Of a DNA stretch of 64,000 bases, positions 6,242 through 6,258 are shown piece after piece. Numbering within the stretch: the stretch's first letter is position 1; each line of letters starts with the position of its first letter. Origin of the DNA: Alphaproteobacteria bacterium (lineage in GTDB: Bacteria; Pseudomonadota; Alphaproteobacteria; JAQWUY01); assembly GCA_965276005.1 (NCBI GenBank), contig OZ254962.1, positions 2,756,455 to 2,820,454 on the forward strand. The letters run 5' to 3'. The notes under the pieces were generated by a model. That model made no database searches and was not told the DNA's origin. It saw only the letters and a program-made list of their open reading frames with translations. Made by a program: the position numbers and the translations under genes.

Positions 6242-6258
6242 GGGGGGGGGGGGGGGGG
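6242..6258 (+). repeat. homopolymeric G17 tract inside the TPS exoprotein coding region
   Basis: Counted directly as t + g9 then g8 + ta. In-frame lengths would be 15, 18 or 21. Confidence 0.9.

Follow-up and report, generated by a model that had tools for sequence, protein, structure and literature searches.

A 17-G tract that splits a two-partner secretion exoprotein gene is probably a phase-variable ON/OFF switch in an uncultured alphaproteobacterial lineage

Is a gene that is broken by a run of G residues, and by nothing else, decaying, misassembled or simply switched off? This question is raised by a 64-kb stretch of alphaproteobacterial DNA (hereafter the window) in which 17 uninterrupted Gs occupy positions 6242-6258 of the forward strand, between TATGCT on the 5' side and TATATT on the 3' side. 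An earlier note on this DNA had claimed that the run splits a two-partner secretion (TPS) exoprotein gene into two frames, 6119-6241 and 6259-10140, and that an 18th G would yield one open reading frame (ORF) colinear with an intact paralog at 13138. Sequence and translation bear out both statements. The ATG at 6119 opens a frame (MIHKSVKFASLAVSALGTGVFAGGLPQGG...KYA) that extends up to the tract and encodes a Sec-type leader and the start of the TPS domain (MIHKSVKFASLAVSALGTGVFAGGLPQGGVVQEGAATLKYA). In the assembled state (G17) this frame stops at 6340, giving a stub of 73 amino acids (aa). Downstream of the tract, 1293 codons (6259 to 10140) can be read through without a stop, though not in the frame of ATG 6119. 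Inserting one G (G18) generates a continuous 1340-aa ORF (...KYAGGGGGGYILTVDQQSDKAVIDWHSF...) with zero other stops. The note had also proposed that the tract is a slipped-strand ON/OFF switch. We consider this probable: G17 would be a contingency locus, a translational switch of a TpsA-type FG-GAP exoprotein. The proposal draws its support from tracts at the same site in 10 loci, length differences between orthologs, purifying selection and codon usage.

The repaired 1340-aa protein matches the TPS domain in Pfam (PF05860, E 1.9e-30) as well as FG-GAP_2 repeats (E 2.4e-32), and carries the conserved TPS motif FLVNPNGI. It is colinear with the product of the gene at 13138, a 3200-aa paralog devoid of a tract, which reads ...QYTGDTLNINQQSDKAIIDW... 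/ ...QYTGDTLNINQQ... where the split gene has ...KYA-Gn-YILTVDQQ.... The predicted junction peptide spanning the tract is ...KYAGGGGGGYILTVDQQSDK. G17 is the sole G/C homopolymer of 9 or more residues in the window, the next longest being 8, as in the G8 runs at 29061 and 39639 and the C8 run at 56976; the chance expectation for a run of at least 17 is approximately 1e-6 under a model of independent, identically distributed bases with the window's composition. A 73-aa stub identical to the one predicted here is on record for the window's genome; analogous stubs exist for four other split paralogs. Scans of the window for tRNAs and Rfam families gave zero matches, so the tract is not explained by an RNA element of these kinds. 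Since the downstream neighbour lies on the opposite strand, the frameshift touches the split gene alone, without polar effect.

The tract is not confined to this gene. A homology search with the repaired protein identified at least 16 paralogs on the window's own 2.97-Mb contig, hence at least 18 including the two in the window. The commonest N-terminal type, ...GIQY(T/S/N)GDTLNI(N/D)QQ..., is tract-free; a subset has the N-terminus ...VQEG.A..(K/T)YA-Gly(n)-YI... and carries the tract module. In the window's genome at least six loci have a tract at the same codon: the split gene and five other paralogs. Further tracts were found in a second strain (ENA ERZ26858540), whose DNA is 97.7% identical to the window over 15 kb. 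The loci are listed in Table 1. Over ten loci in the two strains, lengths are 12, 12, 13, 14, 15, 16, 16, 16, C+16 and 17. The tract is in frame at three of the ten, against about one third expected for freely drifting lengths. Two orthologous pairs differ by one G, the split gene (17/16) and P0005 (15/16). The five tracts for which DNA was read consist of G alone and share the TATGCT / TATATT context.

Table 1. Features of the split gene and poly-G tract loci of the TPS family in the two strains.
Feature	Genome	Position	Strand	Tract or state	Remarks
Promoter-like site TTGCAA, 17-nt spacer, CATAAT	window	5928..5956	+		about 160 nt upstream of start codon; weak candidate
Shine-Dalgarno-like AAGGA	window	6105..6109	+		9 nt before ATG 6119; conserved in orthologs and paralogs (alignment)
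Start codon, Sec-type signal peptide (MIHKSVKFASLAVSALGTGVFA/GG), first TPS beta-strand	window	6119..6241	+		frame 1, translation
73-aa stub ORF	window	6119..6340	+	G17 state	signal peptide, six Gly, out-of-frame residues
G17 homopolymer, proposed slippage tract	window	6242..6258	+	G17	in frame at 12, 15 or 18
Exoprotein remainder	window	6259..10140	+		1293 codons; TPS domain, beta-helix, FG-GAP repeats, C-terminal Gly run, hydrophobic segment, conserved tail
P0005	window genome			G15, in frame	5 Gly
P0013	window genome			G12, in frame	4 Gly
P0009	window genome			G13, off	begins MLGGGGY; ATG inside AAATATGCTGGG in another frame
P0014	window genome			G16, off	begins MLGGGGGY
P0249 (...KYAGGGGVYSHHRSAIG, then stop)	window genome			supports G13	leader stub of P0009
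P0250 (...KYAGGGGGVYSHHRSAIG, then stop)	window genome			supports G16	leader stub of P0014
P0251 (...KYSRGGGGGIFPSI, then stop)	window genome			C+G16, off	stub of sixth locus
P0247, P0248	second strain				two leader stubs, from search with 73-aa stub
Syntenic ortholog of split gene	second strain	L001:8006-8021		G16	read as DNA
Gene called as 4022-aa product	second strain	L126:7130-7143		G14, split	read as DNA; more than 2360 codons open downstream
P0005 ortholog	second strain	L127:7127-7142		G16 (G15 in window genome)	read as DNA
P0018	second strain	L004:4993-5004		G12, in frame	read as DNA

Tract lengths are assembly consensus values for the two strains, and each may be off by one. The lengths of the five other tracts of the window's genome (G12, G13, G15, G16 and C+G16) were inferred from proteins or stubs in two frames. 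For the pairs P0009/P0249 and P0014/P0250 the tract reads as glycine alone in both frames; thus both tracts are pure G and their lengths of 13 and 16 are confirmed. The signal peptide was assigned by eye. The product of 6119..6241 is colinear with the N-termini of intact paralogs and differs by 1 amino acid from its ortholog in the second strain. The promoter-like site matches the consensus at 9 of 12 positions, a count not above that of shuffled sequences; the second strain has nearly the same sequence there.

Outside this species-level lineage the tract was not encountered. None of the more distant homologs (P0019-P0120) has it, which indicates that the tract module is specific to this lineage. 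A TPS-domain search of genome contigs returned two more distant metagenome-assembled genomes (MAGs), OZ246977.1 and a Rickettsiales MAG, with a tract in neither. When metagenome contigs were searched for TATGCT followed by G12, 120 loci were obtained, none of which encodes a relative (tblastn), this pattern being too unspecific. Within the lineage, passenger regions of the tract-bearing paralogs are 45-68% identical, yet the tract module is kept. TPS paralogs in general have 5' ends that are approximately 90% identical and conserved 3' ends, with highly divergent FG-GAP cassettes between them. The tract-bearing genes form no clean clade in the TPS core, and the TPS repertoire differs between the two strains.

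Sequence comparison of the split gene with its ortholog gave ratios of nonsynonymous to synonymous divergence (dN/dS) of 0.15 for the N-terminal 500 codons and 0.10 for the C-terminal 330 codons; the control, the neighbouring moeA gene, gave 0.12, at a strain divergence (dS) of about 0.07. In the FG-GAP repeat region (window 7700-9000) the ratio rises to 0.81 and several in-frame indels are present, which suggests relaxed or diversifying selection on these repeats, the exposed part of the protein. The split gene as a whole is, by these ratios, under purifying selection since the strains separated, with both assembled alleles off. Moreover, the two alleles are out of frame in different frames (G17 and G16). 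A gene under purifying selection and yet off in two frames is what a switching locus predicts, not a decaying pseudogene.

Frame-breaking changes are otherwise scarce. Where the 15-kb alignment is good, indels of a length not divisible by three occur at just two places, the G tract and a T13/T14 tract. Its last 100 bp or so align poorly and contain three more (14868-14893), within the variable portion of the paralog. In a further 6 kb that was compared, the two assemblies agree at homopolymers of 7-8 nt. The G tract apart, no frame-breaking indel falls in coding sequence in the well-aligned part of these approximately 21 kb. The matching short homopolymers and the few frame-breaking indels indicate that neither assembly is generally prone to frameshifts.

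Codon usage bears on what is being conserved at this site. GGG accounts for 29% of Gly codons in the non-TPS genes of the window and for 17% in its two TPS genes. The C-terminal Gly12 run of the split gene is made exclusively of GGC and GGT, with zero GGG, and the C-terminal Gly run of the L004 gene likewise has mixed codons. Pure G at the same site in ten genes, against codon usage, implies that the homopolymer itself is conserved and is not a by-product of glycine. The possibility that the tract is a mere glycine linker was rejected on the same grounds.

The switch would operate as follows. Slipped-strand mispairing during replication would add or remove a G, changing the tract by one residue in either direction. 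Lengths divisible by three (12, 15 or 18) would join the leader to the TPS domain and make the product exportable, the tract itself being translated into 4-6 Gly; any other length would leave a stub of 54-74 aa and no exportable protein. At n = 14 or 17 the large ORF would have no start codon; at n = 13 or 16 it would have an ATG, with neither signal peptide nor evident ribosome-binding site. Length changes within a population are expected to be frequent and reversible. With six tract loci in one genome switching independently, up to 64 expression combinations could arise, and a clonal population would then present its surface or secreted proteins in many combinations. Judging from the families involved, export would proceed via a TpsB partner and the protein may serve as an adhesin or have another role at the surface. 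The locus has several attributes of known contingency loci: a tract of hypermutable length lies inside an ORF and sets it to the 73-aa stub (G17) or the 1340-aa product (G18), its assembled length is polymorphic between two strains while the flanks are conserved, and the repeat itself is maintained.

Some observations weigh against this interpretation, and several of them are also what an assembly artefact would produce. If the true tract were in frame (for example G18 or G15), the gene would simply be expressed, and the split and the single-base differences would be homopolymer miscounts introduced by the sequencing platform or the polisher. Lengths come from consensus sequences, long G runs are prone to miscounting in assembly, and databases are known to be an unreliable source of G-tract lengths (PMC9187656). 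For the second strain, coverage of about 10x and the style of the contig names suggest a long-read metagenome assembly. Single-base differences between the strains fall at the two longest homopolymers (G17/G16 and T13/T14). Both G12 tracts are on, and tracts from G13 to G17 are off except for one G15, a pattern that an error growing with length would also give. Lastly, and apart from tract lengths, no TpsB gene appears in the scanned window ORFs or in the fetched loci. To account for the data by miscounting, however, seven of the ten consensus lengths would have to be wrong, G13 and G14 included. Three tracts in frame out of ten is random phase; homopolymers of up to 8 nt agree fully between the assemblies, and coding sequence shows no other frameshifts. 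In addition, pure-G tracts of 12-17 residues kept against codon preference are intrinsically unstable, and the locus would phase-vary even if miscounted. The artefact, which we regard as unlikely, thus concerns the assembled state and the exactness of the number 17, not the mechanism.

A further alternative is recoding. The DNA tract would be out of frame for good, and slipping of RNA polymerase on the C17 template, a -1 slip of the ribosome on GGG, or both, would supply a low and constant amount of full-length protein in place of ON and OFF subpopulations. In bacteria, transcriptional slippage is known to occur at long homopolymers (PMC1088944, for A/T runs), and every frame of a G run reads GGG, so that tRNA-Gly could re-pair after a slip. 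Purifying selection with off alleles in both strains fits this scheme as well as it fits phase variation. On the other hand, the DNA length itself varies among orthologs and paralogs, with in-frame alleles among them; neither a stimulatory structure nor a conserved out-of-frame length was seen, the off alleles being in both wrong frames (13 and 16 versus 14 and 17); and slippage is better documented for A/T than for G/C runs. We find recoding as the main route to expression quite improbable; slippage in transcription or translation most likely merely makes the OFF state leaky.

That the gene is a plain pseudogene, frameshifted and decaying with an incidental G run, can be given very little weight. 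Both assembled alleles of the ortholog pair are off, large families of paralogous adhesins often hold pseudogenes, and P0018 has an additional 1-nt deletion outside homopolymers. These points are countered by the lack of a second lesion in 1293 codons, by dN/dS values of 0.10-0.15 in the conserved domains, level with the housekeeping neighbour, by alleles that are off in different frames and so do not descend from one ancestral inactivation, and by the same tract in paralogs that are in frame. An old pseudogene, in particular, was rejected on the dN/dS values and the absence of further lesions. Just as remote is the idea that runs of at least 15 G on the coding strand fold into G-quadruplexes in the course of transcription or replication and initiate recombination, in the manner of the pilE G-quadruplex of Neisseria gonorrhoeae. 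The result would be gene conversion among the TPS paralogs, which number 18 or more, and in this deep-branching alphaproteobacterium the family would combine phase variation with antigenic variation, a reading that we hold to be equally far-fetched. The lack of a clean tract clade, the mosaic, fast-evolving passengers (dN/dS 0.81) and the strain-variable repertoire are consistent with that idea, and none of them is specific to G tracts.

Several side observations were made on individual loci. The P0251 stub has ...KYSR in place of ...KYA, which corresponds to a C instead of the first G (C+G16); such an interruption could be a first step toward locking the switch. In P0018 (L004:8600-8700) a 1-nt deletion near the 3' end, GCAAGT to GCAGT, lies outside homopolymers and results in loss of the conserved tail; it is either a genuine pseudogenising mutation or a low-coverage error. 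Directly upstream of the G14-split gene, at L126:4718-6608, are a gene for a large serine recombinase (Resolvase and Recombinase domains) and an HU-like gene, so this paralog may lie in a mobile-element context.

To place the tract within the protein, the first 340 residues of the in-frame paralog P0005 were modelled with AlphaFold (mean predicted local distance difference test score 86.6, predicted template-modelling score 0.86). The model places the Gly run in a loop of the TPS beta-helix (residues 41-47, local confidence 75), flanked by strands at residues 35-40 and 48-53. Its position in a beta-hairpin loop explains why the ON state would accommodate 4, 5 or 6 Gly alike. The PDB entries that match the model best are the secretion domains of EtpA, HxuA, HMW1 and FHA. 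The family thus has the signal peptide and the PF05860 TPS domain with beta-helix fold that define TpsA proteins. As to the adjacent cognate TpsB, the other hallmark, no gene of this type (FhaC/ShlB-like, with POTRA domains and a beta-barrel) was present among the 20 window ORFs scanned against Pfam, namely those flanking the two TPS genes and larger ORFs elsewhere, with 27-32 kb, 37-46 kb and some others unscanned, or among the called genes of L001, L004, L126 and L127; a TpsB shared from a distance may be encoded in the rest of the 2.97-Mb genome. None of the six TPS genes examined adjoins a TpsB/FhaC-type gene (window ORFs scanned in part). Presumably, the many TpsA paralogs share one or a few distant TpsB proteins, or take another route. 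The C-terminus is also peculiar. All paralogs end alike (window 9640-10140 in the split gene): a Gly run of mixed GGC/GGT codons is followed by a hydrophobic segment that resembles a transmembrane helix (AAIVLIGAGVAVVAMGGIGGG) and by a conserved tail some 90 aa long (SIDTLFNTGIYAHLNGIDMQALYQP...YELDE.LYETL..IFVQQ), which is without a Pfam match. Such an ending is unusual for a TpsA protein, and it is under strong purifying selection (dN/dS 0.10).

The gene order in the window is moeA, the split gene, a convergent mscS-type channel gene, prmC, a DUF4167 gene, the 3200-aa paralog, cobS/cobT, a polysaccharide-synthesis cluster and dnaX. The alphaproteobacterial origin given in the earlier note agrees with the DUF4167 and CobS/CobT neighbours and with the DnaX homologs. 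DnaX is 98% identical in the second strain, 71% in the OZ246977.1 MAG and at most 50% in all others, its nearest named relatives being Rhodospirillales-like (about 45%). The host, by these comparisons, belongs to an uncultured, rather isolated alphaproteobacterial lineage with 43% G+C. Literature searches turned up no specific account of this genome or of the protein family.

Two other variable regions were noticed in the window. A run of 13 Ts (12999-13011) precedes the start of the 3200-aa paralog by 127 nt and an extended -10-like sequence, TGgTATAAT (13019-13027), by 10 nt; the second strain has T14 (L001:14798-14811). This may be a phase or rheostat tract acting at the promoter level, or a homopolymer miscount. 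The polysaccharide-biosynthesis cluster (approximately 27000-55600, upstream of dnaX) is not shared with L125 of the second strain, to which only the 55.6-61.9 kb part aligns, at 98.7% identity. The cluster looks like a strain-variable surface-polysaccharide locus adjoining the variable TPS genes.

Altogether, if the tracts are switches, an uncultured alphaproteobacterial lineage, known only from metagenome-derived assemblies, would share the poly-G strategy of classical mucosal pathogens. The strategy would extend over a family of giant FG-GAP two-partner secretion proteins, six of the 18 or more paralogs in one genome, and hints at a life in association with a host or a surface, where selection fluctuates. 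The corresponding "pseudogenes" and 50-70-aa "hypothetical proteins" could then be flagged as annotation artefacts of a switch. Ten loci are available for which tract-length spectra could be obtained at the read level from existing public data.

Among known systems, the Opa proteins of Neisseria offer a parallel for the use of such tracts across a family. These outer-surface proteins are encoded by multiple genes with CTCTT repeats in the signal-peptide coding region and switch independently, in combination; as in the present family, each paralog has its own leader-region tract. The repeat is a pentanucleotide rather than a homopolymer, the products are small beta-barrels rather than giant TPS exoproteins, and the hosts are Betaproteobacteria.

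In the precedents cited here, the tracts shown by experiment to be phase-variable measure G9-G12 (PMC7446907, PMC9187656, PMC11466379). The system closest in protein type is fhaB of Bordetella pertussis, whose G10 tract occurs in mixed G9/G10/G11 populations and is under selection in mice (PMC7446907). Like the split gene, fhaB encodes a TpsA exoprotein with an N-terminal TPS domain and has an intragenic poly-G tract in which a change of one residue truncates the product (PMC7446907). Unlike it, fhaB is a single-copy gene with G10 at nt 1078-1088, inside the passenger (PMC7446907), whereas tracts of G12-G17 are found here at the junction of signal peptide and TPS domain (around codon 42) in several paralogs. 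The TPS domain is 15% identical to that of FHA in the structural alignment with the P0005 model. In Bifidobacterium breve UCC2003, the sortase-pilin genes bbr_0113a/b and bbr_1889a/b have G11-12 tracts, whose length heterogeneity was measured by maximum-depth sequencing (PMC9187656). There, too, the tract separates an ORF with the Sec signal from the ORF of the mature surface protein, and the surface structure requires an in-frame length (PMC9187656); by contrast, B. breve is a Gram-positive actinobacterium and the tracts concern LPXTG pilins at two loci, with no TPS paralog family.

The earlier note had regarded homopolymer phase variation as poorly documented in Alphaproteobacteria, which is true in part and in part superseded by badE of Bartonella krasnovii (PMC11466379). 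The A9/G9 tracts of badE were reported in 2024 to go ON and OFF in wild isolates and in experimental evolution (PMC11466379). This gene is an alphaproteobacterial adhesin ORF toggled through frameshifts in mononucleotide repeats (PMC11466379), as is proposed for the one described here. It differs in encoding a trimeric autotransporter (type Vc, as opposed to Vb here), in tracts of 9 residues at another position in the gene, and in belonging to a cultured pathogen. In conclusion, the mechanism is already known; what is new is the host lineage, lengths of up to 17 and use across a large family of FG-GAP TPS proteins.
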